A DNA stretch of 64,000 nt from an uncultured Candidatus Saccharibacteria bacterium (GTDB lineage Bacteria > Patescibacteriota > Minisyncoccia > Phycocordibacterales > DAORIS01), in the NCBI GenBank assembly GCA_964644035.1, contig CAZXUH010000001.1, forward strand, positions 393,093 through 457,092, written 5' to 3'. This document shows positions 5,101-19,806 of the stretch, piece after piece (within the stretch, counting starts at the first letter, position 1; the number at the start of each line of letters is the position of its first letter). The position numbers and the translations under genes are program-made. A model generated the notes under the pieces. The model did no database searches. It saw only the letters and a program-made list of their open reading frames with translations, and was not told the DNA's origin.

Positions 5101-8100
5101 TACCTACCCTACCTCCCAATGCTGCGAGAAGAACATTTGCATACTCTACACCAGCTTTTAGACCAGGATTGATTGTAACGTTCCCAGCTGTTCCAGAAGT
5201 TCCTGCATCACCAGCAGTAATCGTAACTGCTCCACCTGTACCAGTACTACCGGCTGAGCCAGCAGTGATACTTAGACTTCCACCTACCGTACTAGCAGCA
5301 CCTGAAGCAGAACCAGCCGCCAATACGAGATTTCCACCAAATGAGTTCGAACCAGTACCTGCACCCGATCGAATAGTAATGACACCACCACCTGTACCAC
5401 CATTACCACCTTCTCCACCAATAATAGTGACCCCTCCACCAGCATCTGTTCCCGATCCACCCAACACTCTGAGAGCTTCAGGTGCATCAGAAGAAGAAAC
5501 ATCAGAAGCATTTAGTCCCTCTATAGAAAGAGTTGCGAGCGGAGTACTTGAACCAATACCTACCATACCATTTTGAAGAATCGAGAAGTATTCATTGCCA
5601 CCCGCTGAAGCTGCGTCGAAGATACCAAAACGATCGGGACCTGTGGCTGAGATCGACCATGTAGTTGTACCTACATTATATGTTCCAGCCCAGACCGAAT
5701 TCCATCGTGCACCTGTTGCTCCGAGATTGTATGCTGACATATTGCCGCTGTATGGTGCACTTGGAAGAATATCTCTCATCATCGATGTGCCAGCGACAGT
5801 AAGAAGACTTGTAGGTGTTGTTGTACCAATACCGACATTGCCCGTCATATAGTAAATATCATTTCCTGTCTGTGTCCATTTTGATAGACCAGGAATACCA
5901 AGTGAAGATGTTGATGTCCATACTGGAGCTGCAGTTGAACCTTGTGACAAAAGCACCTGACCAAGTGTACCAGCATTGTTATTGAAGAGCGTTGCACCTG
6001 ACTGATTAATTTCAAACATCTTCGTATTTGTTGAAGATGAAATGAGGAATGGGGTTACAGTTCCCGATCCAGTAACCTGAAGTCTAGAAATAGGTGTTGT
6101 TGTACCAATACCAACATTTCCAGCTGTAGGGTTGATGATCAAATTGCCTCCTGCAGAAACGAGATATGAGTACAGACCACTTACCCCCAAACGTATACCT
6201 CCACCAATTACACCAGTTCCCCAGTTGTTTGAATTAGTATTGAAACTTATTCGAGGATCTGTTGTCCAGCTGAATGTAGCTTGAGCATCAACACCAGAAC
6301 CTACATCAACCGTAAGATTTCCTTCAGCCACAGTTCCTATTTGCAATTCTGACGTTGGGATAGGTGTAGCAATTCCAACATGTCCATTCGCATTTATTCT
6401 AAATATTGATGCGCCAGTGGATGATGCAATATCTACAAGAGGTACTGTTGGAGCAGTCGATGAACCTCTGATTGCGAGCTGTCCGCTTGGTGTAGATGAT
6501 CCAATACCAAGTCGTCCTGAGAGATAGTTGTGATTTTCACCAACCATATACAAACCATAATTGACCTGTCCGCCAGTAGGATTGCCATAGTATGAGACAA
6601 CTGATGTAGGGCCGAAAATAAATGATACTCCAACTGGAGTTGATTTAACACCAATAAGAGCTCCTGATATATCATAATCACCACCTATGTCTATGATTGT
6701 TTTTGAACCCGCAATCGTAACAGATGAACCACCTGTTGTGAATGCAAGATCAGGATTTGAACTACTTGGATTAATAATGCCAACATTGCCAGTAACAGTA
6801 AGTTTTGAACTTGGATTGACTGTATTGATTCCCACATTGCCGTTTTGCAATATTTCAAGCAAACTTACATTTGTAGACGAAGCGATTCTGAATGGATTCG
6901 TTCCACCCACTCCTGTGACTTGGAATGTGGTCAGAGGTGTTGAAGTACCTACAGCAACTTTTCCTGTGTTGTAATAGATATCGGATCCATTGGTGATCCA
7001 TTGTGATGACGATGCAATATTTGCAAAACCAAGTGAAGATGTTGCTACCCATAGCGGTGCAGCAGTTGAACCTTGTGACAAGAGAACCTGGCCAAGAGTT
7101 CCTGCTGAATCATTAAATAATGTTGCGCCAGACTGATTAATCTCAAACATCTTCGTATTTGTTGAAGATGAAACAAGGAATGGTGATGAGCCACCTGCAC
7201 CTGTGATTTGCAGACGAGCAAGTGGGGATGTAGTGCCAAAACCTGAGTTTCCGCCAGTCAACATAGTCAATTTGACCGTAGCTGTTGGACCAATCATCAA
7301 AGAGCTAGCAACATCGTTGACGATAAAGTTACCAAATACGAGTGAGTTGGCTGCGGAAACCGTGTTGAACGAACCAACTGCTGTACCATAACCAACATTG
7401 ATCGTGTTGGAATTACCGATTGCAGTTGAGTATCCATCGATTGGACCGCTTCTACCATTTACAATATTGAAACTTCCGAGTGCCGCGTTGTATATACCAC
7501 CTCCGACATTGTTACTACCTCCGATTGCGATGCTATTACCAAGCGTTGATGTGGCACTATTGTATTGACCGATAATGATTGATTCTGGGCCGCTCGCAAC
7601 TTGGTTGTGTGCTGTTCTTCTGCTCTGAATATCAATTGATCGTGCACCACGTGCCGCACCGCTGGTATCTCCCATAATAATCGCTCCACTTGATCCAGGA
7701 TGACTTACTGAGAGTGCGCCGAATACTGTTGTTGTTCCAACAACAGAAAATATTGATGCTGGAGATGATGTACCCACACCAACACTACCCGAACTATTCA
7801 AGACGGACAGGACAGGACTGTCAGCACTGCCGTTTGACGTACTGTCACCAATAAATACACTACTTGCGCCGTCGGGTTGGATATACAAATCTGCCCAAGC
7901 ATTAAGAGCGGCACTATGTCCTCCAAGCCATGCTTGAGAATTGTATTCGCCCATCAAAAATGCAACATTGTCTCCGCCGGCTACAATTCTTCCTCTCCAT
8001 GAGGCAGTCGATGCGCCTGTACCGCGTACATAGAGTTTTGCACCGCCATTTGCCGAAGGAATATCGTTGGAACCAATTCCAACATTACCGTTTTGCTGAA

Positions 8101-11100
8101 CTTCAAACAAAACAGTATTCGTTGACGAAGCGATTCTGAATGGATTCGTTCCACCCACTCCTGTGACCTGGAGTGTTGTGAGGGGTGTTGAAGTTCCTAC
8201 TCCTACTTTGCCTGCAGTGTATGAAAGATCATTGACTGTTTTTGTCCAGTAGTTGATCGAGGCTGGGAGTGTTGTTGAACCCAAGATATAGTTCGATACA
8301 CGTTGATCTGTGTAATAAAGATTTGAACCTTCTGCAACATTTGTTGTCAAAAAGCCAAGCGATGAAGTTGAAGTCCAGAGTGGAGCTGCAGTTGAACCTT
8401 GTGACAGAAGTACTTGGCCCAAGGTTCCATTTTGATTGTTGAATGCTACAGCGCCAGATTGATTGATTTCGAACATCTTCGTATGAGTCGATGAAGAAAC
8501 CAAGAATGGGTTGTTAGCACCTCCTCCTGTTATTTGCAATCGCGCAAGCGGAGTTGTTGTGCCGAGACCAACATTGCCACTGAAGTAAGCTCCCCCATCG
8601 ATAAAGCTTATATAAGAAGTGCCGATACTCGTTCCACTTGACTGTGTAGTCGAACTAAACACCAATTGTCCTGAGGCATTGGTATATGTGTAACCCTGCA
8701 ATGCATCACTAATCGATGTTCCATGGCGCCACTCGATCGCACCACCTCGTCGTGGAGGAGTAGGTCCTGCCGAAAGACCAGTGAGCACAATTTTTCCTCC
8801 ACCAGTCTGCCAATCACCAACATACAGATCTCTTCCCGCATTTACAAATACATCGCTATAAAATGTTGACGTACCTGATCCCAAAACATTGAGCACACCT
8901 TCAGCTGATATATTTCCTGCGAAGTAACCATTACCAGCAACTGAAAGTTTTTCAATTGGTGATGAACTTCCAATACCGAAGTTACCGTTTTGCAAAAGTT
9001 GGAGCATTACCGCATTTGTCGAAGATGACACTCTAAATGGATTCGTGCCCCCTACTCCTGTGACCTGGAACGTGGTCAAAGGCGTTGAAGTACCTACAGC
9101 AACTTTTCCAGTGTTGTAGTAGATATCAGATCCGTTGGTAATCCACTGTGATGAAGATGCAACGCTCGCAAATCCAAGCGAAGAGGTTGCTACCCATTGA
9201 GGCGCTGCAGTCGAACCAAATGATCGGAGAATAAATCCTGATGTTCCGGCATCGTTGTTGAAGAGTACAGCACCTGATTGATTGATTTCAAACATCTTCG
9301 TATTTGTTGAAGAAGAGATGAGGAAAGGACTTGCTGTGCCCGCACCTGTTACCTGAAGTCGAGCGATAGGTGTCGTGGTACTCAATCCAATATTTCCAGT
9401 ACTCAAATCACCAAAAAGCGCATTGCCTATGTTTAAGAAATTGGAATCAGAAGCTGAGCGAGCAAGTACTGAACCGATAAGTATGTTATTCGCACCTGTC
9501 GTTGAGGTTGTACCAACCCGATAACCGAGCATAATGTTATTTGATCCAGATGTAAGTGCTCCGCCTGACTGATAACCCACAAGCGTATTGGCAGAATTTC
9601 CTGTACCACTGCCCTGACCTGACAAATAACCAATTGCTACGTTCGCAGAACCTCCGTTGTTTTGGCTTCCAGCGTGGTTACCAATGTAGACGTTTACCAA
9701 TCCACCAGCATTTGAAGATCCTGCACCAGTACCAAGAAATACGTTGTTGCTACCTGTACTGCCACTACCAGCCGAATTACCTAAGAAGAGGTTGTTGCCT
9801 CCCGAAACGTTACCTGTACCAGCATTCGATCCGAGGAAGATATTGTCCGAGCCACCAACATTGGAGAATCCAGACTGATTTCCAACAAAAATGTTGTCAT
9901 TACCGCTTGTATTTGAAAATCCAGACTGATTTCCAACAAAGAAGTTATATGCTCCGCTTACTCCAGCAGCAACAGGTGTTGCACCTCCCAAAAACAAGTT
10001 GCCGGTCGTTGTTGCCAATCCAAAGAGCTGTCCGCCTGAGTAATAACTCGTGCTATCAGTGATACCAGCTACCGTAAGTGCTGCCCATGGAGTGGTTGTA
10101 CCAACACCCACCTTTCCTGTCGCACGATAGACATTACCCGATCCAAGAGTCCAATAGTTAATCGAAGCAGGAAGTGTTGTTGAACCAAGTACATAATCAG
10201 ACACCCTTTGGTTTGTGTAATAAAGATTTGTTCCTTCTGCTACGTTTGTTGTGAGAAAACCAAGTGTTGAAGTAGAAGTCCAGACTGGTGCAGCTGTTGA
10301 ACCTTGCGACAAGAGAACCTGTCCGAGTGTTCCGTTTTGATTGTTGAATGCTACTGCACCCGACTGATTGATTTCAAACATCTTCACATTTGTCGAAGAT
10401 GAGATGAGGAATGGGGATGAGGCTCCAGCACCAGAAACATGTAATCGAGCTATTGGTGACGAAGTACCAATCCCAACTAGACCATTTCCAGTTATTGTCA
10501 TAAGTTCAGTAGCGCCTGAGCTAAAGAACGAAAATGCTTTGCCAAACGCTGTACCCGATGGCTGTGATGTACCTGAGAATAAATCAACACCGTAATTACC
10601 ATTGAGTTGGAAAACATTTACCTGTGCAAAATCTGATGGTCTGCGGTACTTTATAGGATTGTTGTAATCAAGAACGATTGAGCCATTTGCAATATCGAGT
10701 TTCTGTTGGGGGGTTGTTGTACCGATACCAACATTGCCTTGGACAATCAATCCATTCGTAGGAGGTGTCTGGTTGTAATATCCTGTACCAATTGCCGCAT
10801 ATCCATTAACACCAAGTAATGTTCCAACATATATTCCGCTATTGGTATCACCAGCAACACCAAGCTGCAATTTTGCACGAGATGCACCATCTCCAGTCAC
10901 CGCATCGAGCGTTGGCAATGAACCTGCACCACCGATCACCATACGTGCGAAGTTGAAGCTTGCATTTCCAGCACCATCGGGATCAGCGAACCAGATTTGT
11001 TTGTTGTTTACCGCATTGTATCCGAGTGAGAACAAGAAACCGCTACCGCTACTTACTCCGCTGAGTGAGCTGCCGGTAAATGCAATACCACGAGTAGAAG

Positions 11101-14100
11101 TTGCTCCAGTTGCTGATTGAGCAACAGTAAAGTTCGCAGCGGGAGTTGATGTGCCGACTCCGATATTCCCATTGTTCAAAATAGTGAAGAGTGACGTTCC
11201 GGTTGAAGATGAAACGTTGAATGGATTGACTCCACCTGTTCCTTGAAGATTGAATGTATACGATGACGATGATGCATTGATACCAACAACCGATCCATTC
11301 TCTCGGAGAATAGAATCTGTAAATGCGCTACCTGTCCATCGTGGCATGAAGCCCGATGTGAGAGAGGCGGTGATTGCTGATGAAGTAAAGCCAAGTGAAG
11401 ATGTTGATGTCCAAACAGGAGCTGCTGTTGAACCTTGTGACAAGAGGACCTGACCCAATGTTCCAGCCTGATTATTAAAGAGGGCTGCACCTGATCTATT
11501 GATTTCAAACATCTTCGCATTTGTTGAAGATGAAATAAGGAAAGGACTTGCTGTACCTCCACCTGTTAGCTGAAGTTTTGCAATAGGTGTAGTTGTACCA
11601 ATACCGATATTTCCTGAAGAATTAATTGTCATATGAACAACACCAATACCCGCTCCATCTCCAGTCATAAACTGTAGATCATTAAATGTGCTATCACCAG
11701 CAACAGTACCAATTACAAGTGCGTTGTTTTGTGCTCCTGTAACGACGTCTCCAGCAGAAGTTGTAAGTGCTGAGCCAACAAAACCAAAGTACCCTGTGGT
11801 GAGAGAACCATCCTGGAGCAAGGAGATTCCAGGGTTGTCATTCTCATCGTTATTATCAGTATCAGAATCAATTACAAATAAACCGTCGCCTGCTATACCA
11901 CCACTAACATGAAGACGACCGCTTGGAGACATAGTGCCGATACCGACATTTCCGTTTTGCAAAATCTCAAACAAACTTGCATTTGTCGATGAAGAAACTC
12001 TGAAAGGATTGGTACCACCTGTTCCCCTTACTTGAAAAGTATTGAGCGGTGTTGATGTTCCTACACCAACTTTTCCTGCAGTGTATGAAAGATCATTAAC
12101 TGTTTTTGTCCAGTAGTTGATTGAAGCAGGAAGTGTTGTTGAGCCCAAGATATAGTTCGATACACGTTGGTCTGTGTAATACAAGTTTGAACCTTCGGCG
12201 ACGTTTGTTGTGAAGAATCCGAGAGAAGATGTTGAAGTCCATAGAGGTGCTGCAGTAGAACCTTGTGAAAGTAGTACTTGGCCAAGTGTTCCGTTTTGAT
12301 TGTTGAATGCTACTGCACCTGACTGATTGATTTCGAACATCTTGGTATTTGTCGAAGATGAGACGAGGAATGGATTTGATCCTCCAACTCCTGTTACCTG
12401 CAATCGCGCAAGCGGAGTAGTTGTACCTACACCCAGATTTCCAGTTGATGAGATAGTGATCTTTGCAGAATCACTTGAACCAATCTGAATACTATTTGCA
12501 ATTGAGTTGTTGATGTTTTGTCCAATAATTGTCGCATCTGCTGCCGACACAATGTTGTTGTAACCAAAAATGAGTCCGTTACTTCCGCTTGAAGTATTTG
12601 CATTACCATAAAGTACTGAACCTCCGGCTTCTGCTAGGTTATCCCTACCGATAAGTACAGCATCAGACGAAGAAGCAATGTTACCTCTTCCGATCAATGT
12701 ACTATCGGCAGAAAAAGCATTTGCGCTGTTTGAGATACCAACAATAAATACATCTGCTGCCTCGTTAAGGTTCGATGATCCAAAAATAGATCCACCTGAA
12801 CCATTATTACTATTGCCCAGACCAAATGTAACAGCATTCGCTTTAGTCGAACTATTCGAGAGTCCAACTACAAACTGCTCAGTTTCAACACCTCCCCCCG
12901 TCAAAGCATTGTCACGACCAAAGGATGCACATTGTTCGCAATCCACTGAGTTTGCAAAACCAATTGCAATCGTTTGAACTCTGGACGCCTGGTTGTCGGC
13001 ACCGAAAGCTATTGCATTAACTCCGCTGGCTACCCATGTAGGATCGCCATGCGAAGATTGAATATCGATAGAGCTCGTTCCGCGCGCATTACCGGAAGTG
13101 TCTCCAATCACCACCGCATTTGTAATTGGATACTTCATTGAGAGAGCTCCGTAAATGCTTGTTGTGCCAACCACATACAACGGTGTTGCTGGCGTCGATG
13201 TACCAATACCAACATTACCTGTATTGAAGTAAATGTTAGCGCCGTTATTGATCCATTGTGACGAAGTAGCTGTACCTCCAATACCAAGTGATGAAGTTGC
13301 GACCCAGATAGGCGCAGCTGTTGAACCTTGAGACAAAAGCACTTGACCAAGCGTTCCAGCTTGGTTGTTGAAGAGCGCTGCGCCCGATTGATTAATCTCG
13401 AACATTTTCGCATTTGTTGAAGATGCAATGAGGAACGGACTTGCTCCACCAGCACCCGTGATCTGAAGTCGAGCAATAGGTGTCGATGTACCAATACCCA
13501 ATCGATCGTTTGTATCATCCCAAATAAAATTGGCTGCATCGCTTGAAAGATAACCGTTGGTCGATGCAAATGGAATGATGCCAGAACTAAACGCCGTAGC
13601 GCTGCTGTTTTGAAGCAAAATATTTCTATCGGTGTTGGCTGGTGAGAAGTAAAGCTGCGTTCCGTCGTATTCGACTGCTCCAGCTTCAGCCGATGTGAGG
13701 TTGGTACCAGGGCTGAACTTGAGAGGTGCCGTGCTTGCAGATGCCGTACCAGTTGCAAGATGAAGCAAAGCGCTAGGTGTTGTAACACTGCCTCCCAAAA
13801 ACAACTTACCGTTGAGTTTGCTGCTCAATCGGTCGGTCAAATTCAATGCAATAGTGCCATTGCCATCATAGAGATTCATTGCACCACCGTCGACATGGAT
13901 AAACGATGAACCATTTTGAGAGCGGAATGAGTATGAGTACACACCAATGTTTGGAACAATGCGAGCCTGACCCCCGGCACCAGTGAAGAGGGCGATACCG
14001 TCATCAGCAACGCTGAAACGCTCTACATCAGCACTGTTGAATGTTGCAAAATGCTTATCAGAACCACTACCGGTACTGCGAACAGTCAGACGATGCGTCG

Positions 14101-14704
14101 GTGTGGATGTACCAACGCCAACATTGCCGCTTGAAGTGATCGAAAATACTGAGCTTGTGCTTGCACCAAAGAATTCTGCAACCTTGCCAGCACCAGTTTG
14201 GATGATGCTCATAAACGTCGAAGCACTTGAGGTGCTGTTGCTCTGATCGTTTCTGAAAAATGCACTTCCCGAAACACCGCCAAGTGTTCCCGCATCTTTT
14301 GCAATCATTGCTGCAGGCACTGCACCGAGAATTTTTCTTGGTGTCATTTCACTATCCGCTTCGATCGTCACACCAAGATACAACACCTGATTGAAATCAA
14401 TACTCGTCAACGAAGTTGTTGAACCGAGCATGATGCTGAAGAGTCCGTCGGTTACTTGTACGGTGTCCGACTCTGTCCAGATTGCAACGCCACCTGTTGG
14501 AACTGTGTAGAGTTTGAAAACGATATCGTAATCACCGTTGGTGACTGCAATGTTTGCCGGAGTGGTGAGACGACCTTGATAATTGATTTGAGGATTGAAT
14601 GCAGCTTGTGCAACTGGCATTTCAAAAAATCCGACGAAAGGAATTGCGAGTGATGCAACGAGAACGAGGACTGACACTGGGATGTACAATAGTTTTTTTA
14701 TCAT
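2195..14704 (-). CDS. Giant (4169 aa) secreted, fibre-like surface protein. It has an N-terminal signal/TM, a tail-fibre-like N-terminal domain, more than 8 repeated ~50-aa modules (GIGTTTP..ARLQVTG..SPFLISSSTN.KMFEINQSGA), Gly/Asn-rich beta-helix-like repeats, a C-terminal intramolecular chaperone auto-processing (peptidase S74) domain, and a Pro/Glu/Thr/Asp-rich tail.
   Basis: Single uninterrupted ORF. N-terminus MIKKLLYIPVSVLVLVASLAIPFVGFF..AQA is signal-like. The C-terminal segment CTSDQRLKKNIATL..SFNWLAENDAAERHPGFIAQEVEAVFPDLV..DGYKSLAYSSFAPYLVQGIQEL matches the conserved S74 chaperone-of-endosialidase motif set (approx DNA 2575-2900). The final ~76 aa are PE/T-rich low complexity. Confidence 0.8.
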   Translation of the reverse strand: MIKKLLYIPVSVLVLVASLAIPFVGFFEMPVAQAAFNPQINYQGRLTTPANIAVTNGDYDIVFKLYTVPTGGVAIWTESDTVQVTDGLFSIMLGSTTSLTSIDFNQVLYLGVTIEADSEMTPRKILGAVPAAMIAKDAGTLGGVSGSAFFRNDQSNSTSSASTFMSIIQTGAGKVAEFFGASTSSVFSITSSGNVGVGTSTPTHRLTVRSTGSGSDKHFATFNSADVERFSVADDGIALFTGAGGQARIVPNIGVYSYSFRSQNGSSFIHVDGGAMNLYDGNGTIALNLTDRLSSKLNGKLFLGGSVTTPSALLHLATGTASASTAPLKFSPGTNLTSAEAGAVEYDGTQLYFSPANTDRNILLQNSSATAFSSGIIPFASTNGYLSSDAANFIWDDTNDRLGIGTSTPIARLQITGAGGASPFLIASSTNAKMFEINQSGAALFNNQAGTLGQVLLSQGSTAAPIWVATSSLGIGGTATSSQWINNGANIYFNTGNVGIGTSTPATPLYVVGTTSIYGALSMKYPITNAVVIGDTSGNARGTSSIDIQSSHGDPTWVASGVNAIAFGADNQASRVQTIAIGFANSVDCEQCASFGRDNALTGGGVETEQFVVGLSNSSTKANAVTFGLGNSNNGSGGSIFGSSNLNEAADVFIVGISNSANAFSADSTLIGRGNIASSSDAVLIGRDNLAEAGGSVLYGNANTSSGSNGLIFGYNNIVSAADATIIGQNINNSIANSIQIGSSDSAKITISSTGNLGVGTTTPLARLQVTGVGGSNPFLVSSSTNTKMFEINQSGAVAFNNQNGTLGQVLLSQGSTAAPLWTSTSSLGFFTTNVAEGSNLYYTDQRVSNYILGSTTLPASINYWTKTVNDLSYTAGKVGVGTSTPLNTFQVRGTGGTNPFRVSSSTNASLFEILQNGNVGIGTMSPSGRLHVSGGIAGDGLFVIDSDTDNNDENDNPGISLLQDGSLTTGYFGFVGSALTTSAGDVVTGAQNNALVIGTVAGDSTFNDLQFMTGDGAGIGVVHMTINSSGNIGIGTTTPIAKLQLTGGGTASPFLISSSTNAKMFEINRSGAALFNNQAGTLGQVLLSQGSTAAPVWTSTSSLGFTSSAITASLTSGFMPRWTGSAFTDSILRENGSVVGINASSSSYTFNLQGTGGVNPFNVSSSTGTSLFTILNNGNIGVGTSTPAANFTVAQSATGATSTRGIAFTGSSLSGVSSGSGFLFSLGYNAVNNKQIWFADPDGAGNASFNFARMVIGGAGSLPTLDAVTGDGASRAKLQLGVAGDTNSGIYVGTLLGVNGYAAIGTGYYNQTPPTNGLIVQGNVGIGTTTPQQKLDIANGSIVLDYNNPIKYRRPSDFAQVNVFQLNGNYGVDLFSGTSQPSGTAFGKAFSFFSSGATELMTITGNGLVGIGTSSPIARLHVSGAGASSPFLISSSTNVKMFEINQSGAVAFNNQNGTLGQVLLSQGSTAAPVWTSTSTLGFLTTNVAEGTNLYYTNQRVSDYVLGSTTLPASINYWTLGSGNVYRATGKVGVGTTTPWAALTVAGITDSTSYYSGGQLFGLATTTGNLFLGGATPVAAGVSGAYNFFVGNQSGFSNTSGNDNIFVGNQSGFSNVGGSDNIFLGSNAGTGNVSGGNNLFLGNSAGSGSTGSNNVFLGTGAGSSNAGGLVNVYIGNHAGSQNNGGSANVAIGYLSGQGSGTGNSANTLVGYQSGGALTSGSNNIMLGYRVGTTSTTGANNILIGSVLARSASDSNFLNIGNALFGDLSTGNIGLSTTTPIARLQVTGAGTASPFLISSSTNTKMFEINQSGAVLFNNDAGTSGFILRSFGSTAAPQWVATSSLGFASVASSSQWITNGSDIYYNTGKVAVGTSTPLTTFQVTGVGGTNPFRVSSSTNAVMLQLLQNGNFGIGSSSPIEKLSVAGNGYFAGNISAEGVLNVLGSGTSTFYSDVFVNAGRDLYVGDWQTGGGKIVLTGLSAGPTPPRRGGAIEWRHGTSISDALQGYTYTNASGQLVFSSTTQSSGTSIGTSYISFIDGGAYFSGNVGLGTTTPLARLQITGGGANNPFLVSSSTHTKMFEINQSGAVAFNNQNGTLGQVLLSQGSTAAPLWTSTSSLGFLTTNVAEGSNLYYTDQRVSNYILGSTTLPASINYWTKTVNDLSYTAGKVGVGTSTPLTTLQVTGVGGTNPFRIASSTNTVLFEVQQNGNVGIGSNDIPSANGGAKLYVRGTGASTASWRGRIVAGGDNVAFLMGEYNSQAWLGGHSAALNAWADLYIQPDGASSVFIGDSTSNGSADSPVLSVLNSSGSVGVGTSSPASIFSVVGTTTVFGALSVSHPGSSGAIIMGDTSGAARGARSIDIQSRRTAHNQVASGPESIIIGQYNSATSTLGNSIAIGGSNNVGGGIYNAALGSFNIVNGRSGPIDGYSTAIGNSNTINVGYGTAVGSFNTVSAANSLVFGNFIVNDVASSLMIGPTATVKLTMLTGGNSGFGTTSPLARLQITGAGGSSPFLVSSSTNTKMFEINQSGATLFNDSAGTLGQVLLSQGSTAAPLWVATSSLGFANIASSSQWITNGSDIYYNTGKVAVGTSTPLTTFQVTGVGGTNPFRIASSTNVSLLEILQNGNVGINTVNPSSKLTVTGNVGIINPSSSNPDLAFTTGGSSVTIAGSKTIIDIGGDYDISGALIGVKSTPVGVSFIFGPTSVVSYYGNPTGGQVNYGLYMVGENHNYLSGRLGIGSSTPSGQLAIRGSSTAPTVPLVDIASSTGASIFRINANGHVGIATPIPTSELQIGTVAEGNLTVDVGSGVDAQATFSWTTDPRISFNTNSNNWGTGVIGGGIRLGVSGLYSYLVSAGGNLIINPTAGNVGIGTTTPISRLQVTGSGTVTPFLISSSTNTKMFEINQSGATLFNNNAGTLGQVLLSQGSTAAPVWTSTSSLGIPGLSKWTQTGNDIYYMTGNVGIGTTTPTSLLTVAGTSMMRDILPSAPYSGNMSAYNLGATGARWNSVWAGTYNVGTTTWSISATGPDRFGIFDAASAGGNEYFSILQNGMVGIGSSTPLATLSIEGLNASDVSSSDAPEALRVLGGSGTDAGGGVTIIGGEGGNGGTGGGVITIRSGAGTGSNSFGGNLVLAAGSASGAASTVGGSLSITAGSAGSTGTGGAVTITAGDAGTSGTAGNVTINPGLKAGVEYANVLLAALGGRVGIGTTTPVAQLNVKGISSAPTTPLFEVASSTNNSIFRINSNGNVGVGITNGTANLSIENPNDNTDSFAIYSGGTERFSMQVSAASTDTASFFVRNNNVMTLNEDTLVGIGTTTPAAKLQVTGSAGTNPFRIASSTNTVMLQLLQNGNFGVGVANPTTKVSLGSDTANTKLAIYDDGTSTMGLGAQSGQFRFNLYTSANNRYSFMDAPAGNEIFTILGTGKVGVGTTTPLTKFQVTGSAGSSPFRVSSSTNSSMFEILQNGYVGIGNSNPAKILTINDSGGLATMRIERTGQVNNLQADFAIQTPGGVQHFQIDVTDGASTAKTLSLNPSGGLVGVGTSSPATSLQVRGIGGTNPFRISSSTNVSLLEINQAGNVGIGTTSPLVKLDVNGGIHTNNGIIINTTGNNTTAAPGTLQIYGTNNKLRMTYPGVVDTDFVINSSGHLTITGMNNVGIGTTTPIARLQITGAAGATPLFEISSSTNHAPGKPSGTLMRVLSTGQVAIGTSTPFKGAALTIERNNADASGNSYRALGFNNTSSFLFHGGYTMDIISDASGVVQNMASDPTYDSNGIITSITCQHGGRSCSSLEVINGELRYNQRMTAALGGYLGAVLTISNGAVSIGSTTPGATFSVRGTSTRPTKIIFDVASSSGATLLRVNADGNIGIGTTSPLARLHITGIPGANSTFRISSSSNETVLEVAPNGFVGIGTSTPAYMLSVGNASTTGVIARFQNTNGTCDVDPTSSALSCTSDQRLKKNIATLSTSSSLEKLRNLRSVSFNWLAENDAAERHPGFIAQEVEAVFPDLVNTNPDGYKSLAYSSFAPYLVQGIQELDMKVTTLEQLIASTSAMLSSVSIFDRIQATLGVFTKVQTSELCLDDVCINKDQLRALLNQTGGSTPPPSNPGNGGGDEPPPDDGNASSTPPVEDETPSDEPPPEDTSADETPSEDTPADSGSEQETPPVEEPPVTEPTP
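4300..13450 (-). repeat. Intragenic near-identical DNA repeats within the giant gene, with 0.8-1.3 kb spacing
   Basis: The motif ...ctgattgatttcaaacatcttcgtatttgttgaagatga.. recurs at ~6011, 7141, 8461, 9281, 10361, 11491, 12321 and 13381, with weaker copies at 4341, 4680, 6850, 8100, 8990, 11180 and 11960. A second motif, ccttgtgacaa(g/a)ag.acctg.cc.a..gttcc, precedes each copy. Confidence 0.8.
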
Positions 14705-15075
14705 TTTCCTATTTGTGCATCCTTGTCCAATAACGTGACTGTTTCTGTAAGACTCTTTGCGGGAGTTTTCAGTGCAACATTTGATGTTGTTGTCTCACCT
14801 GAAAAATAGAAAAAGGCGGATGCAAATCCGCCTACACAAAAGAGAAATACTGCAACCAAAAGTCCTCGACCATTTGCAAACAATGCTCTCCCGGCTGGCA
14901 CGTAGTGCTTGGTCATGAAATAAGATTTTACTTCCCGTTCACTGACAAACCAGTTGCGGCCTACCTTCTTACCTTTGACCTTTCCAGAACGAATAAGAGC
15001 CCCGATGTAATCGGAGTGATACCCTGAAATTTGGGCGGCTTGCTTAAGCGTGATGTAATCCTGAAATATGGCCAT
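14701..15075 (-). CDS. Membrane-tethered helix-turn-helix protein with an HTH_17/excisionase-type DNA-binding domain and one TM helix; stop codon overlaps the giant gene start (ATGA)
   Basis: ITLKQAAQISGYHSDYIGALIRSGKVKGKKVGRNWFVSEREVKSY fits the HTH_17 pattern (..IRsG.l....gr.wri..). A hydrophobic stretch LLVAVFLFCVGGFASAFFYF follows, then a 30-aa tail. The 4-nt overlap 14701-14704 is read directly from the coordinates. Confidence 0.6.
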   Translation of the reverse strand: MAIFQDYITLKQAAQISGYHSDYIGALIRSGKVKGKKVGRNWFVSEREVKSYFMTKHYVPAGRALFANGRGLLVAVFLFCVGGFASAFFYFSGETTTSNVALKTPAKSLTETVTLLDKDAQIGK

Positions 15076-15090
15076 GTTGAGGGCTCGTAC

Positions 15091-15117
15091 AGAAATCTCG
15101 AGTTACTCGAGATTTCT
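15091..15117. promoter_or_regulatory. Perfect 27-bp palindrome AGAAATCTCGAG-TTA-CTCGAGATTTCT followed by a T-run, ~16 nt upstream of the HTH gene start. Candidate operator, leader hairpin or terminator.
   Basis: Read directly: the 12-bp arms are exact reverse complements. Confidence 0.55.
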
Positions 15118-15204
15118 TTTTTACTAATAAAAGCCCTGTAGATATAATTATATCTCAGAAAATGTTCAAAATATGGCTATAAATCAAGGGTTGTTGATAA
15201 CTTT

Positions 15205-16596
15205 TTAATAAAGTTTTTGAGTTTTTTCCCTTATGAAAATTCTGACGATTACGTAGATTCCGATGAACAAAATGATCAAGTAAATGAGCAAAAATAAACC
15301 AATGAAAAATATAATTTGTCTATTTTTTAGACTTCCCTGCCCGACAAGATTTGAGCTCGAAATAAACATACCTGGAACGTGCGTTTCGCTACCTCGACTC
15401 AAGAAAACAATGTCAAAAAATGAGTCTCCGGAGGTAAGTGAAGCAGGCACTACAACTTCAAGATATCCATCGCTATGTTTTCTGAAAAGAAATGTATTGA
15501 TGTTACCCTTTTCGATGATTCGAATGTATGACTGTTCTGTATTTTTTGGTATGACCGATTTTGGTACACGCACGATCACTGCTTGTTGATTGTTGATAGA
15601 AAAATTTTGTCGTGAACCAAAAATCCTCGCACCATTTTGAAAAAATAAAATCGATTCAGTTGCTGTGGTCGAAGTTGAAATAGTATTTCCGCCAAAAAGT
15701 GGAAGTGATCCAAAATTGTTTCCCGATGAATCGTAGAAAATAAAATCGGTGACCGCGCCGGAAGAATAATTTCCAAATCGATCTCGTGCAAACGCTGTAT
15801 AAAAATAATGCATGTTTGAAAATGCATTTGAATCGAGTGCTTGCTGTCCCCGACCTTCGTACACAAAATATCCTTCTTGAGGATCGCGCGGATAATATCT
15901 CGTACCGCGTCTGATACGAACAAAATCAAAATCTTCATCGCGAGGATTCTTCCACGTCAGCAAAATATTTCCTCCAAATGAAAGTTCAGCACGAAAATCA
16001 GTAATGTTCGAAGGTGGCGTACGATCAAACAATGATTTTGTTCTAAACGCATAGGTCACCTGCGCCGACTGACCAAAACCGTCCGATGCTCGAACTGTTA
16101 CGTAGTACAGCGTATCCGGCAAAAGGTTGGTCAGCAAAATATTGTGAATATTCCTCAGATCAGTTTCAGTAACATTGCCCGCCGAAGTATCTGGATCGGT
16201 ACCCCAGGAAACCGTGGACAAAGTCTTGGCTGGGGTCGTCCAACTCACTATGGCCGTCGTCGTAGAAGCCTCTATTTTGAAGTTTTCGAAGACAATTGGC
16301 CATTTGTACGTACCTCCAGGACCTGGTTCGGCGGGAGGTTGTGGTGCCACAGAAGGTGTGGTTGTGGGAGTCGGAGGGGTGGTAGTAGCAGTACAATCTG
16401 AAGGACAACTACTGACCGTTTCCCCTAAAAACAGTTCGCAAATCAGATTGTTATTACAGCCCTCAACCAAGAGCTCGATTACCGTCGAATCATCCGCTGT
16501 CGCGGCCTGTACCGAAGAATGTCCTATAGAAACATAAAGGACACAGACCGAAATTACCAGAAATAACCAGGCAAATGTCGTCTTTTTTGAAAGCAT
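15205..16596 (-). CDS. Secreted, membrane-anchored protein with an N-terminal signal, a Cys-rich segment, a Pro/Thr linker, two fibronectin-III-like domains and a C-terminal TM anchor
   Basis: Signal MLSKKTTFAWLFLVISVCVLYVSIG..VQA. Linker TTTPPTPTTTPSVAPQPPAEPGPG. FN3-like stretches (TAIVSWTTPAKTLSTVSWGTDP...LYYVTVRASD; ILLTWKNP..DFVRIRRGT..YFY). C-terminal IIFFIGLFLLIYLIILFIGIYVIV plus RIFIREK. Confidence 0.6.
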   Translation of the reverse strand: MLSKKTTFAWLFLVISVCVLYVSIGHSSVQAATADDSTVIELLVEGCNNNLICELFLGETVSSCPSDCTATTTPPTPTTTPSVAPQPPAEPGPGGTYKWPIVFENFKIEASTTTAIVSWTTPAKTLSTVSWGTDPDTSAGNVTETDLRNIHNILLTNLLPDTLYYVTVRASDGFGQSAQVTYAFRTKSLFDRTPPSNITDFRAELSFGGNILLTWKNPRDEDFDFVRIRRGTRYYPRDPQEGYFVYEGRGQQALDSNAFSNMHYFYTAFARDRFGNYSSGAVTDFIFYDSSGNNFGSLPLFGGNTISTSTTATESILFFQNGARIFGSRQNFSINNQQAVIVRVPKSVIPKNTEQSYIRIIEKGNINTFLFRKHSDGYLEVVVPASLTSGDSFFDIVFLSRGSETHVPGMFISSSNLVGQGSLKNRQIIFFIGLFLLIYLIILFIGIYVIVRIFIREKTQKLY

Positions 16597-16603
16597 GGTC
16601 GTA

Positions 16604-17359
16604 TTATAACGCTACTGCTGTTGCCGTGATAACTGCCGAATAAGCACCACTTTCTTGCATCTTTGACGGTCCTATTTCAGCTCTTACCTTGACGGTCGTG
16701 GTGGCGCCCGAAGGATGGTTGGAACCGGTCGATTGCGATATATTCTTGGTTGTTAGAGTAAAACCGTCCCAGCAAGCGTCTGCGGTGTCAGAGGAGCCTG
16801 TATTACACACAGAACTGTTATCTTTGAAGCGTGGAAGAATATCAGCTCCTTCTGGGCTAAATCCAAAGGCCGATGTAGTCGAAACTATAGCAAAAGTATA
16901 ATCAGGGTCAGCACTTGCCGGTGTGTAATCGTCAAAAGAGATTCCTCCGGAGGTTTGAAGTGCAGGATCAGTCGAGGCTTGGACCGAAAGCACGTAGCCA
17001 GCGCTATTGTCGGTCAATACATTCCAAGCGATAGAACCATTACTCGTACCTCCAATCAAGCCGTTGATATCAGCAAGCGCCACATCTGGTGGTGAGCTAA
17101 TCGAGATATACGACGTATACATCTGCTGATACCCAGCTTTCATGACATAGTTGGTGCTACTGGAAAGTCCTGTTGCTATCTCACCTACCGTATCTTCGAG
17201 ATTGAAACTGGTACTCGTCGAACGCCCTCCCCCGACATCAATAGCATCAAAATTGATTTTGTAATTGGTACTTTGCATTGCAGCAAAAGCCGAAACGAAA
17301 GACAGTGAGAGAATACCGATGGCAATGTACGCGCCCGCGCGCATGATTTTATTTATCAT
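16604..17359 (-). CDS. WxL-like secreted cell-surface protein (Csc-cluster-like, small subunit type)
   Basis: Signal peptide; Ser/Thr/Gly-rich beta-rich composition. The C-terminus SGAYSAVITATAVAL resembles the WxL C-terminal motif G.Y.GTLTWTL but lacks Trp. Start overlaps the upstream gene by 4 nt. Confidence 0.45.
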   Translation of the reverse strand: MINKIMRAGAYIAIGILSLSFVSAFAAMQSTNYKINFDAIDVGGGRSTSTSFNLEDTVGEIATGLSSSTNYVMKAGYQQMYTSYISISSPPDVALADINGLIGGTSNGSIAWNVLTDNSAGYVLSVQASTDPALQTSGGISFDDYTPASADPDYTFAIVSTTSAFGFSPEGADILPRFKDNSSVCNTGSSDTADACWDGFTLTTKNISQSTGSNHPSGATTTVKVRAEIGPSKMQESGAYSAVITATAVAL

Positions 17360-18360
17360 TGCTTGCGACGAAATTCAAATCTTGAAAGGAAGAAGTAAGA
17401 AATAAGTATAAGCAGGACAAGACCACCGCCAACAGCAAGAAGAATTTTCCACGGAAGAATCCAGAATGCCAGAACTTTGGTATCAATAATGTCACCGTAA
17501 CCTCGATTGAGTTCGAGAGTTGCCTTGTAACGTCCGATCCTGAAGCTATCATCTGCCCAATTTACATCTCGGTAACGCAATGAATCTGGAAGTGAGAAAT
17601 AAGCGTCAATCGGTAAAACTCCGATTTCACTACCAAACAGATTGCTAATCCTGATCACACCGTAGGGCGCCAAGTGCACACTACCTGTGTTGTTGAAAAG
17701 TATTTGGAATTTGTCAGGAGATGTTTCGTATATCCAATGTTTATCTGAAATACGAAAATCTTCCACAAAACCGCTTTCATTTACCGGACCGTTGACTCTG
17801 ACAAAAAACAAGACACCGACACGAGAAATAATCTGAGCACCACTAACCGAAGTACTACTGTCGTTCTGAGGCCCATTGGCGACAATTACCGACGAATAAT
17901 AGCCTCCCGGCAAGGCATTTGCTGGGATTTGTATGGTGATAGGAATAGTGATTCTATCCCCAAAATTAAGGGTAAAATCGGAAACTGCAGGCCGTAAAGA
18001 GTCCTTAAATGAATTAGGGCTTCTGTCATCGCCAAGAAGAACAACGGGATTTTGTTCTTCACGAGAACCGACGAAATCTTCGGTCGTAACCTTGAAATCC
18101 GTCTTCCTGTTTATACGACTGGTAACTGAAATATATTTGACGATTGTGTCGCCCGGATCAGCAAAAATTTCCATTTTGCCTGGTTCGAGAACGAAGTCAT
18201 TTTTGTCATCGACACTCATCGATGTGATCTGAGGTCTTTCGGAAGTCTGAGCAAATGTTGCCGCAGGAGCAAGTATGCACGACATCAATACGATTAAGAA
18301 TGCAATATTCTTAGTACGGCTTAGTCCGCAAGATCGTAGTATTGATTTCTTTTTCGGCAT
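17356..18360 (-). CDS. DUF916/DUF3324-like cell-surface protein with a C-terminal TM anchor (CscA-like)
   Basis: Signal peptide; N-terminal domain ..ITSMSVDDKNDFVLEPG..; C-terminal ..YKATLELNRGYG..VLAFWILPWKILLAVGGGLVLLILISYFF plus RRKQ. This is the architecture of DUF916-DUF3324 proteins in WxL loci. Confidence 0.5.
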   Translation of the reverse strand: MPKKKSILRSCGLSRTKNIAFLIVLMSCILAPAATFAQTSERPQITSMSVDDKNDFVLEPGKMEIFADPGDTIVKYISVTSRINRKTDFKVTTEDFVGSREEQNPVVLLGDDRSPNSFKDSLRPAVSDFTLNFGDRITIPITIQIPANALPGGYYSSVIVANGPQNDSSTSVSGAQIISRVGVLFFVRVNGPVNESGFVEDFRISDKHWIYETSPDKFQILFNNTGSVHLAPYGVIRISNLFGSEIGVLPIDAYFSLPDSLRYRDVNWADDSFRIGRYKATLELNRGYGDIIDTKVLAFWILPWKILLAVGGGLVLLILISYFFLSRFEFRRKQ

Positions 18361-18365
18361 TTTTA

Positions 18366-19028
18366 TTAGATCGTTGTCGCTGTAGCCACGATGGTAGCCT
18401 TGTATGTTCCGGATGGAATATAGGAGTTATTCTGTTCTACCGCATAGCAGACCGTACTGTCAACACCCGAAGTTGTTGTTGTCGACGAGCGTGTAGCGAT
18501 TGTTACGTCCGATGTTGTGAAGCCTTTGTATTTGAGTGTAGTTGAAGTTGCGTGAGCGTTGGTAGTAGTGCTGCAGAGAGATCCTGTTCCCCATGTACCA
18601 GTTGGTACATCGGTACCGAAGGCTGAGTAGCCAAATTCGTATGTACCAAATGGAGTACTCCAAAATGCCGGTGCGCCAGTCTGGTCGTCACCAATAGTGT
18701 TGGTTGAGGATTGCATAGCAGGAGTAGAAGTAGCCTTGACTGCGAGGGTGTAGCCGAGGTTATTGTTTGTCTTAACATTCCAAGTCGTTGTCGCAACAGC
18801 ACTGTTTTGCGCGACACCGACTGCTGTACTCATGGTTGCATCAGCAGGGCTCGTGATCGAAATACCAGCGGTCACGTTGAGCGTGATAATGACCGTATCT
18901 GATGCCGAGGCCTGTGCTCCAGCGTACATCGGTTCGAGAGATGCGTACGTAACCAGTGCGCCGACGCTCAAGACCAAGTATGATGCAGCGAGCTTAAATA
19001 TTTTTTTCTTAATGTTCATGATGTACAA
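18366..19028 (-). CDS. WxL-like secreted cell-surface protein
   Basis: Signal MNIKKKIFKLAASYLVLSVGALVTYAS. TTTWNVKTNNNLGYTLAVKAT resembles the first W.L region. The C-terminal SGTYKATIVATATTI resembles the WxL terminal motif. It is the first gene of the 4-gene minus-strand operon. Confidence 0.45.
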   Translation of the reverse strand: MYIMNIKKKIFKLAASYLVLSVGALVTYASLEPMYAGAQASASDTVIITLNVTAGISITSPADATMSTAVGVAQNSAVATTTWNVKTNNNLGYTLAVKATSTPAMQSSTNTIGDDQTGAPAFWSTPFGTYEFGYSAFGTDVPTGTWGTGSLCSTTTNAHATSTTLKYKGFTTSDVTIATRSSTTTTSGVDSTVCYAVEQNNSYIPSGTYKATIVATATTI

Positions 19029-19260
19029 TTTACCCTCTTATAATTTCCAGACCCTAATAGTACAGGAATCATTCTAAATGTCACAACTGCAATATATGAA
19101 TAAGATGTGTATAAACCGTTAATAACCCACAGTATCATTGTATATAGACGTTTTATGGCCTATATTCTGACAAGAAACTTTTATTTTTAGACCGAATTTA
19201 GATTTATTTTATTTAAATTTTAATTAAATAAATCTTTTTATTTTGTCGAGAAAACTTTTT

Positions 19261-19300
19261 TGGAGCCGCTACACAAATCGAACTGGCTACTAGATTTGCA
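19261..19300 (-). other. Degenerate partial copy of the tRNA-Thr 3' half (T-loop AGTTCGA plus identical acceptor 3' end AGCGGCTCCA); possible att-site remnant or tRNA pseudogene
   Basis: tggagccgct (19261-19270) is identical to 19315-19324. The alignment tgcaaatcta.gtagcc.agttcgatttgtgtagcggctcca against tgtaaacagtaggtcctcagttcgaatctgagaagcggctcca was read directly. Confidence 0.5.
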
Positions 19301-19314
19301 TGGAACTAAAATTT

Positions 19315-19390
19315 TGGAGCCGCTTCTCAGATTCGAACTGAGGACCTACTGTTTACAAAACAGTTGCTCTACCAACTGAGCTAAAGCGGC
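19315..19390 (-). tRNA. tRNA-Thr, anticodon UGU, CCA encoded
   Basis: Reverse complement: GCCGCTTTAGCTCAGTTGGTAGAGCAACTGTTTTGTAAACAGTAGGTCCTCAGTTCGAATCTGAGAAGCGGCTCCA. It forms a canonical cloverleaf with anticodon loop TTTGTAA. Confidence 0.85.
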
Positions 19391-19404: not shown

Positions 19405-19806
19405 TCACATTGAATCCTGCTCTCCTTCTTCTTTGCTTTTCTTATGCTCTGACAAATGCTGTAGATGTTCCGATACACTTCTTGTCGTCGACTTGGAATA
19501 CTCAAACATGTGCGACAACTTACGGTGCAGCCTGTACAATGCACTAGCCAATTTCCTATATTGATTTTCAAGAAACGGAATGAATCGATGATAAATGACT
19601 GAAAGAATTTTCAATAGACCAGTATGCTTTACATAAATCACATTGTCACGTATCCAACCCGCAATGCGATGTAGAATTGAGTCCGTCATTTTGCGAACAC
19701 TAACCCACAATGCAATATGCGTGTCATCGAAGACGAACATCTTAAGCAGAATGATGGTGATCATTCCACCGAGTGATATTGAGAATGTTGTAAATGAAAA
19801 TAACAT
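19405..19806 (-). CDS. Hypothetical protein with an N-terminal hydrophobic segment
   Basis: ORF only; no recognisable motif. Confidence 0.25.
   Translation of the reverse strand: MLFSFTTFSISLGGMITIILLKMFVFDDTHIALWVSVRKMTDSILHRIAGWIRDNVIYVKHTGLLKILSVIYHRFIPFLENQYRKLASALYRLHRKLSHMFEYSKSTTRSVSEHLQHLSEHKKSKEEGEQDSM

Follow-up and report, generated by a model that had tools for sequence, protein, structure and literature searches.

Directly downstream of the tRNA-Thr(UGU) gene, on the minus strand of the 64,000-nt stretch of DNA analysed here (the window), lies a partial second copy of that gene (19299-19258), direct in orientation, beginning 15 nt beyond the tRNA and covering about its last 30-45 bases. 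The copy is decayed, it carries no feature that resembles a function, and copies of the same kind recur in the lineage. We conclude that it is a decaying, non-functional remnant of the 3' portion of the tRNA-Thr gene itself with no present role, in other words an ordinary decayed tRNA-gene fragment and a further instance of a known phenomenon that is common in this lineage, and that it has nothing to do with where the adjacent 17-kb operon begins or ends and is not an island boundary. To the reading of the copy as a functionless relic of some local rearrangement we assign a probability of roughly 0.85.

The partial copy beside tRNA-Thr(UGU)

Read along the minus strand, the tRNA is followed by AAATTTTAGTTCCAT (19314-19300), then by GCAAATCTAGTAGCCAGTTCGATTTGTGTAGCGGCTCCA (19299-19261) and finally by AAAAAG (Table 1). 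The core of the copy spans the T-stem 5' strand, the T-loop, the T-stem 3' strand, the acceptor 3' strand, the discriminator, CCA and AAA, and local alignment sets CAGTTCGAATCTGAGAAGCGGCTCCAAAA against CAGTTCG-ATTTGTGTAGCGGCTCCAAAA with 25 matches in 29 columns, among them two exact blocks, CAGTTCGA (8 nt) and AGCGGCTCCAAAA (13 nt, extending 3 nt beyond CCA). The alignment scores 36, while the maximum is 26 over 2130 other tiles of the window and likewise in 5000 shuffles, and the copy is the window's best match to the tRNA-Thr end; a match of score 26 at 55812-55829 concerns the D-arm region only and was set aside as chance. The original prediction had described a degenerate duplicate of the 3' part of this tRNA, and the duplicate is there, in direct orientation, with 25/29 columns, 0/5000 shuffles and its presence in two other assemblies; the exact strings and the distance of 15 nt beyond CCA that it had given are correct on reading the sequence.

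The secure start of the copy is the T-stem 5' strand. Further upstream, GCAAATCTAGTAGC is colinear, with indels, to the anticodon-loop plus variable region TGTAAACAGTAGG, and the extension toward the anticodon loop (TGCAAATCTAGTAG against TGTAAAC-AGTAGG) is colinear as well but, taken alone, does not rise above chance, since 2689/5000 shuffles reach its 5' part. Remnants of the acceptor 5' strand, of the D arm and of the anticodon arm were sought 5' of the T-arm copy, and similarity there is at chance level only. The two copies lie 15-29 nt apart.

The identical tRNA-plus-copy sequence occurs in Logan contigs of SRR14271361 (100% over 7587 nt) and SRR14271360 (1 SNP in 6360 nt), and its recovery from two further sequencing runs rules out an artefact of assembly. 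The same-species Logan contigs carry the arrangement of the window unchanged. Two contig breaks fall nearby: Logan contigs L001/L003 and L002 (two samples of the same population) stop inside the tRNA at 19340 and 19342, and GTDB contigs of relatives often stop at or just past tRNA-Thr (e.g., L006, L023, L039 and L050). We considered the breaks at 19340/19342 as evidence of an att junction and rejected them, as other genera share the tRNA exactly or first differ at T50/C50; the breaks arise because tRNA k-mers are common to co-occurring genera, and other samples span the junction. Contig ends at tRNA-Thr are accordingly best seen as probably an assembly effect of a tRNA sequence common to co-occurring genera.

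Table 1. Positions of the features in the window and of the type-B elements at related loci (L numbers)
Feature	Position	Strand	Description	Basis
tRNA-Thr(UGU)	19315..19390	-	76 nt, CCA encoded	ARAGORN; Rfam RF00005, 73.9 bits
Spacer AAATTTTAGTTCCAT	19300..19314	-	15 nt, from tRNA CCA to partial copy	Sequence reading, alignment
Possible 5' extension of the copy, GCAAATCTAGTAGC	19286..19299	-		Shuffle test on a permissive alignment
Core of the decayed direct copy	19258..19285	-		25/29 alignment columns; 0/5000 shuffles
AT-rich intergenic region	19029..19257	-	From the copy to the next operon	Fold z = -1.76; promoter/terminator scan
Six-gene operon	2195..19019	-	Variable across the lineage, not bounded by a repeat	ORFs, Pfam
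Type-B copies	L015:11112-11259 and 11276-11372; L024:6488-6635; L028:11100-11265; L048:11147-11299; L113:5380-5529; L091:3225-3337; L042:11418-11606; L037:3805-3926	+		
Type-B copies	L100:5789-5938; L111:2932-3081; L041:2705-2850 and 2543-2704; L096:7239-7384	-		
Type-B variants	L030, L021 (tRNA-Thr); L031 (tRNA-Cys); L088 (tRNA-Arg); L060, L042 (tRNA-Ser)			

Neither ARAGORN nor the Rfam tRNA model calls the copy as a tRNA, and its T-stem strands, GCCAG and TGTGT, cannot pair. No significant fold was found in the copy region (z = -1.76 against shuffles), nor did a promoter/terminator scan find an intrinsic terminator after tRNA-Thr or after the copy; the AT-rich region beyond contains weak sigma-70-like sites (19100-19057) and, at about 19235-19200, a hairpin made up of A and T only. 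One may still ask whether the fragment acts in cis, for example by directing the processing or termination of the tRNA transcript or by serving as a decoy for tRNA-binding enzymes, since the differences cluster between two intact blocks, the 13-nt one at the 3' end and the 8-nt T block, and since the tRNA of the window has no canonical terminator behind it whereas many relatives have one. We hold this to be quite improbable. The tRNA-Thr genes of L085, L087, L093, L095, L102 and L114, which represent several other genera, are 100% identical to that of the window and the copy is absent beside all six of them, so that it is not a conserved functional element; the fold is no better than that of shuffled sequences; and the copy cannot mimic a minihelix, because its T-stem is broken and no 5' acceptor strand is available.

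The adjacent operon and the question of an island boundary

The window belongs to a Patescibacteria genome of Paceibacteria/Taylorbacteria-like affinity. The gene order on the minus strand is S2, EF-Ts, a 133-aa ORF and tRNA-Thr(UGU) (19390-19315), and the order S2/EF-Ts/ORF/tRNA-Thr is kept in about 70 of 80 species-level relatives. The relatives comprise 80 GTDB loci found via EF-Ts and 30 metagenome loci found via the tRNA 3' sequence, with the same or nearly the same tRNA; the best GTDB EF-Ts match is 69-71% identical to that of the window, the flanks of the relatives reach at most about 70% nucleotide identity, and no locus from another genome belongs to the same species. The 133-aa ORF between EF-Ts and tRNA-Thr (19405-19806, minus strand), encoded on a 568-kb NCBI contig, is almost without relatives, with 2 matches in 5.8 billion proteins, namely its own source and a fragment of 92 aa; a counterpart with 52% identity exists in L102, and most relatives have some ORF at that position.

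On the other side of the copy begins an operon for a giant surface protein. It encodes proteins of 217, 334, 251 and 463 aa (the last fn3-like), a 124-aa HTH_17-plus-transmembrane protein and a repeat protein of 4169 aa that carries a Peptidase_S74 domain at its C-terminus; four of the operon proteins are secreted or membrane proteins. The 4169-aa secreted protein (2195-14704, minus strand) has at least 8 internal repeats spaced at 0.8-1.3 kb as well as many short repeats encoding motifs of the type G(I/V)GT(T/S)(T/S)P, and its C-terminus consists of the Peptidase_S74 domain (endosialidase-chaperone, of tail-fibre type) followed by a Pro/Glu/Thr-rich tail. The small HTH_17 protein (14701-15075) precedes the giant gene; its domain assignment lies below the Pfam cutoff (26.5 versus 27 bits) and the protein is membrane-anchored.

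The original prediction had taken the tRNA side to be the start of an accessory island. The variability stands: none of the operon proteins is found next to tRNA-Thr in about 100 relatives, and the interval from tRNA-Thr to dnaE measures about 9 kb in L110 against 17 kb in the window. The repeat, however, is not the border of the variable region. A search with the 10-nt string TGGAGCCGCT from the tRNA-Thr 3' end and with the tRNA end itself found no further copy beyond chance in 2195-19257, at the far boundary of the operon or elsewhere in the window; the copy that was to be looked for at that far boundary is therefore missing, and the stop codon of the giant gene (2195) abuts that of the convergent dnaE (2188) with 6 nt to spare. 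Within the window, TGGAGCCGCT is matched with at most one mismatch 6 times against 2.5 expected, a number reached by 6% of shuffles. A third exact TGGAGCCGCT at 33349 was weighed as a far-end copy and dismissed: it lies on the other side of the tRNA, and we read this bare 10-mer as chance because it has no flanking tRNA similarity and sits in coding-like sequence.

An integrase had been proposed as a second thing to look for. Pfam finds no integrase or recombinase among the operon proteins, and jackhmmer/phmmer searches seeded with XerD and gamma-delta resolvase return nothing at E < 0.1 in the 3160 ORFs of the window and the 110 related loci, a seeded search of limited sensitivity. We see only a very slight chance that the copy serves, or until recently served, the adjacent 17-kb operon as an att site, its partner repeat having decayed past recognition or lying outside the tested range. 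The operon is indeed lineage-variable and holds a protein of the HTH_17 (excisionase-type) fold together with a giant protein of the phage-tail-fibre Peptidase_S74 type; against this, its far end runs up to dnaE within 6 nt and carries no repeat, no integrase was found, the HTH_17 assignment is below cutoff for a membrane-anchored protein, the GC content of the operon is not distinct, and both copies lie on the same side of it. Among the relatives, no classic island bracketed by tRNA-Thr repeats was found within about 9.5 kb, and no viral contig carries the window tRNA-Thr 3' end as an attP (0 contigs). A looser attP pattern retrieved 120 viral stretches, which are nearly all complete phage tRNA genes unrelated to the present lineage, with only 4 of the 120 outside ARAGORN tRNAs, and a phage attP was rejected as a candidate.

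Possible origins of the fragment

As regards the event behind the fragment, we lean, at slightly less than even odds, toward the relic of an att-type insertion within the 3' half of the tRNA gene that was later eroded. DNA carrying a tRNA-Thr 3' half would have recombined inside the gene, between the anticodon loop and the T-stem; the incoming DNA would have restored an intact tRNA and shifted the original 3' portion downstream, as in att-type integration; the inserted DNA would then have been lost almost wholly, so that 15-29 nt remain; and the displaced fragment, without selection, would have gained 3 substitutions and at least 1 indel in its T-stem/T-loop part. The recombination event, the deletion of the insert and the identity of the original copy are what we infer. 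With respect to the last of these, the flank after the second CCA of the window, AAAAAAGTTTTCT, resembles the native flank of relatives with an identical tRNA, such as AAAAAACTTTCTA in L085 and L114, which puts the downstream copy in the native context; judged by this flank, the downstream copy is probably the displaced original.

The related loci supply arrangements of the same kind. A direct partial copy of the 3' end is present within 400 nt of 17 of 127 tRNA genes of any kind in relatives (13%), and most of these direct repeats begin precisely in the T-loop. In L105, a 33-nt spacer separates tRNA-Thr from a near-exact copy of the part from the anticodon loop to CCA (+33 to +73), behind which stands the native terminator. 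This spacer bears no relation to the sequence flanking the second copy, which argues for an insertion rather than a simple tandem duplication. In L080 (2527-2700), 43 nt of spacer separate tRNA-Phe from a 21-nt copy whose start lies exactly in the T-loop. Both are clear, fresher counterparts of the arrangement in the window. A 28-nt piece of the L080 spacer recurs after the second copy. Recurrence of such events is further supported by empty versus filled sites (L101 versus L113) and by tandem accretion (L015, L030, L041).

Several points weigh against the att-type event. Neither the window nor the 110 related loci yielded an integrase or recombinase; the classic bracketed island within about 9.5 kb and the viral attP mentioned above were not found either; only 15-29 nt separate the copies, so that an att reading must assume the loss of a whole element with both repeats kept; both flanks open with AAA and then TTTT, as a tandem duplication of 54 nt would also give; and the 5' limit of the copy is not securely at a canonical crossover sublocation. 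A local tandem duplication by slippage or unequal exchange, of a unit of about 54 nt made of the tRNA 3' part and a few flank bases, with decay of the downstream unit and no mobile DNA, is indeed the main rival, one that we nevertheless consider rather unlikely. It accounts for the 54-nt period and for copies that are direct and adjacent; the first three A's of the spacer AAATTTTAGTTCCAT are also present in the flank of the copy, where identity extends 3 nt beyond CCA, and the T-run occurs in both flanks; the recombinase that was not found is one that it does not need; and L055 gives an example, in this lineage, of recent tandem amplification of tRNA-Thr-derived units (4 x 89 nt). On the other hand, past AAA/TTTT the flanks are not convincingly alike (AAATTTTAGTTCCAT versus AAAAAGTTTTCTCGAC), the spacer of the fresher analogue L105 is unrelated to the flank of its second copy, and the precise start of most related repeats in the T-loop fits site-specific events better than slippage.

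The original prediction had also allowed for a decayed tandem tRNA, that is, for the remnant of a complete second tRNA gene from a tandem pair whose 5' half was deleted. This would be in keeping with the resemblance of the spacer piece TTTAGTTC to tRNA positions 6-13 (TTTAGCTC) and with the near-full-length, 5'-truncated tRNA-like units of L042 and L055; yet the TTTAGTTC match is at chance level (reached by 2689/5000 shuffles), the L055 units are rejected as tRNAs by Rfam, and 54 nt are available for a gene of 76 nt. ARAGORN calls of 'tRNA-Ser(act)' in L042 and L055 are not tRNAs by the Rfam covariance model. No intact second tRNA follows tRNA-Thr in about 100 related loci, so that, by the test which the original prediction itself had set, the tandem-tRNA proposal finds no support, and we regard it as most unlikely. 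The proposal of a scar of integration and excision fared better, in that the fragment is best read as a scar of a past event with fresher equivalents in L105 and L080, but no integrase or recombinase was found to go with it. A tmRNA or a known non-coding RNA 3' of the relatives' tRNA-Thr was likewise ruled out: ARAGORN detects no tmRNA in the 80 GTDB loci, and the sequence 3' of tRNA-Thr in relatives has no Rfam family match.

The eroded att-type insertion has parallels in known systems. An island that integrates in a tRNA gene restores that gene, and a displaced piece of the original stays behind, which is the basis of Islander mapping (PMC4383910). As with the attR fragment described there, the fragment in the window is a direct 3' repeat downstream of an intact tRNA and is not a functional tRNA (PMC4383910); in contrast to islands and prophages of that type, 15-29 nt instead of kilobases lie between the copies, no integrase was found and the adjacent variable operon is not bracketed. 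The sublocations of the Islander model are the anticodon loop, the T-loop and the 3' end; in the window the T-stem 5' strand is where the secure core begins, with the colinear extension toward the anticodon loop at chance level on its own. Integrated elements have also been documented to decay until attL/attR remnants without an integrase are left (PMC5704250). In the CIMEs so described, too, two att-like copies are kept with no recombination genes between them (PMC5704250), but these hold kilobases of element DNA and intact att sites, whereas in the window there is no recognisable element DNA, the downstream copy is mutated and the genome has no known cognate integrase; by analogy, the scar may be viewed as a minimal attL/attR-like scar, comparable to a fully eroded CIME. 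Partial prokaryotic tRNA fragments have been attributed to the integration of genetic elements and are liable to mis-annotation (van der Gulik et al. 2023, PMC9897764); the window likewise has a tRNA-derived fragment beside a canonical gene, although this one is too decayed for a tRNA mis-call by ARAGORN or Rfam. The self-splicing group I introns of Patescibacteria tRNAs, which sit at position 35/36 inside the gene and involve no duplication (PMC13011429), represent another remodelling of tRNA genes in the phylum, but the tRNA of the window is uninterrupted and its extra piece lies outside the gene.

Structured elements behind tRNA genes in relatives

Many of the copies found in relatives belong to something else, a conserved structured element of about 110-170 nt located immediately 3' of tRNA genes, which we call type B; 11 of the relatives' 17 direct copies form the end of such an element. 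With nine copies linked to tRNA-Thr as input, an HMM and a covariance model (CM) detect 14-16 copies in 1.3-1.4 Mb. Every one is on the strand of the tRNA and, with the one exception of L096, placed 12-190 nt 3' of it or in tandem behind a first copy. The host tRNAs are Thr, Lys and Ser, and related variants follow tRNA-Cys and tRNA-Arg. From the 5' end, the element sometimes starts with a copy of the acceptor 5' strand, and continues with a hairpin P1, whose loop is CTGC, an antisense T-loop/T-stem segment, CGGAG, a hairpin P2, CGAG and a hairpin P3, before it ends by repeating, in direct orientation, the tRNA sequence between T-loop and 3' end over 18-24 nt and up to 60 nt. The antisense segment matches 9-12 nt of the T-loop plus T-stem of its own tRNA exactly in 10 of 12 elements (0-13/1000 shuffles); the exact-match test was used here because a comparison of self and cross pairings by RNAduplex does not discriminate against the GC-rich background. 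Three hairpins are kept by compensatory changes, and two helices are supported by covariation, with 92.7% of cells paired and 18 of 20 pairs changed on both sides in an alignment that was fitted to the model; with the same proviso of a fitted alignment, 0/500 shuffles reach these values and slid controls pair at 35-46%. An empty site in L101 can be set beside the filled sites of L113, L100, L111 and L091, and tandem copies are present in L015, L030 and L041.

The element matches no Rfam family, has no recombinase nearby and has apparently not been described before. Its sense and antisense T-arm copies recall folded single-strand att sites such as the integron attC and the CTX-phage attP(+), and it may be a non-autonomous mobile element with a folded att site or else a tRNA-like or tRNA-linked RNA. 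That the fragment of the window is itself the decayed stump of such an element is highly unlikely in our view. The terminal part of a type-B element is indeed a direct tRNA 3' copy, and relatives often have such an element behind tRNA-Thr; nhmmer, however, finds no type-B copy in the window, where the only CM match above noise is the tRNA itself and the region of the copy (19260-19306) scores 4.8 bits, the copy of the window has no antisense T-arm segment, and it takes in the T-stem 5' strand, unlike the type-B repeats, whose start is in the T-loop.

Several other oddities are linked to tRNA-Thr in relatives. Tandem 89-nt tRNA-like units follow the gene in L055 (four units, 1950-2650) and L042 (one unit, 11070-11380); they are without the acceptor 5' strand and have a 21-nt hairpin insertion. 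Upstream of them are further tRNA-Thr 5' fragments with hairpin insertions, and just downstream, on the opposite strand, is an ORF with a LAGLIDADG_3 domain (Pfam E = 5e-9). Inverted copies of the tRNA-Thr T-arm or acceptor 3' strand occur in the first 50-130 nt after the gene in L064, L082, L066 and L021, and in L021 two 12-nt copies, one inverted and one direct, could pair to enclose a conserved insert of about 100 nt that L030 has as well. In L096, read in reverse-strand orientation, the tRNA-Thr match (9817-9848, minus strand) belongs to a perfect long palindrome made of the tRNA 3' end, a terminator hairpin and an inverted 3'-end copy (AAGCGGCTCCA...hairpin...TGGAGCCGCTT); a second copy of the hairpin stands 2.4 kb downstream, directly ahead of the type-B element (7239-7384, minus strand), and three ordinary genes (Peptidase_S51, HD and His_Phos_1), cargo-like in appearance, lie between the hairpin copies. 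The sole mobile-element enzyme seen beside about 110 tRNA-Thr loci is an IS200-like Y1 (HUH) transposase ORF in L038 (Pfam Y1_Tnp, E = 7e-10), 120-812 nt downstream of tRNA-Thr on the reverse strand.

For the annotation of genomes of this kind, the fragment of the window should be recorded neither as a tRNA nor as an att site of the operon, nor taken as evidence for an integrase-borne island. More generally, in the reduced genomes of Patescibacteria tRNA 3' ends are recurrent sites of small insertions and duplications, as the 13% of 127 tRNA genes illustrate, and many of the relatives' copies are part of the conserved structured element, whose sequence is adapted to the tRNA it trails. It is tempting, if doubtful, to regard the fragment as the eroded footprint of a so far undescribed, lineage-wide process in which small, recombinase-less structured elements insert again and again at tRNA 3' halves in Paceibacteria and duplicate the tRNA 3' end; if such a process is real, the footprint in the window is what one such event leaves behind. 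It is the type-B family, and not the scar of the window, that merits a study of its own, for in organisms from which hardly any mobile DNA is known it may represent either a tRNA-linked RNA or a new type of mobile element that is non-autonomous.
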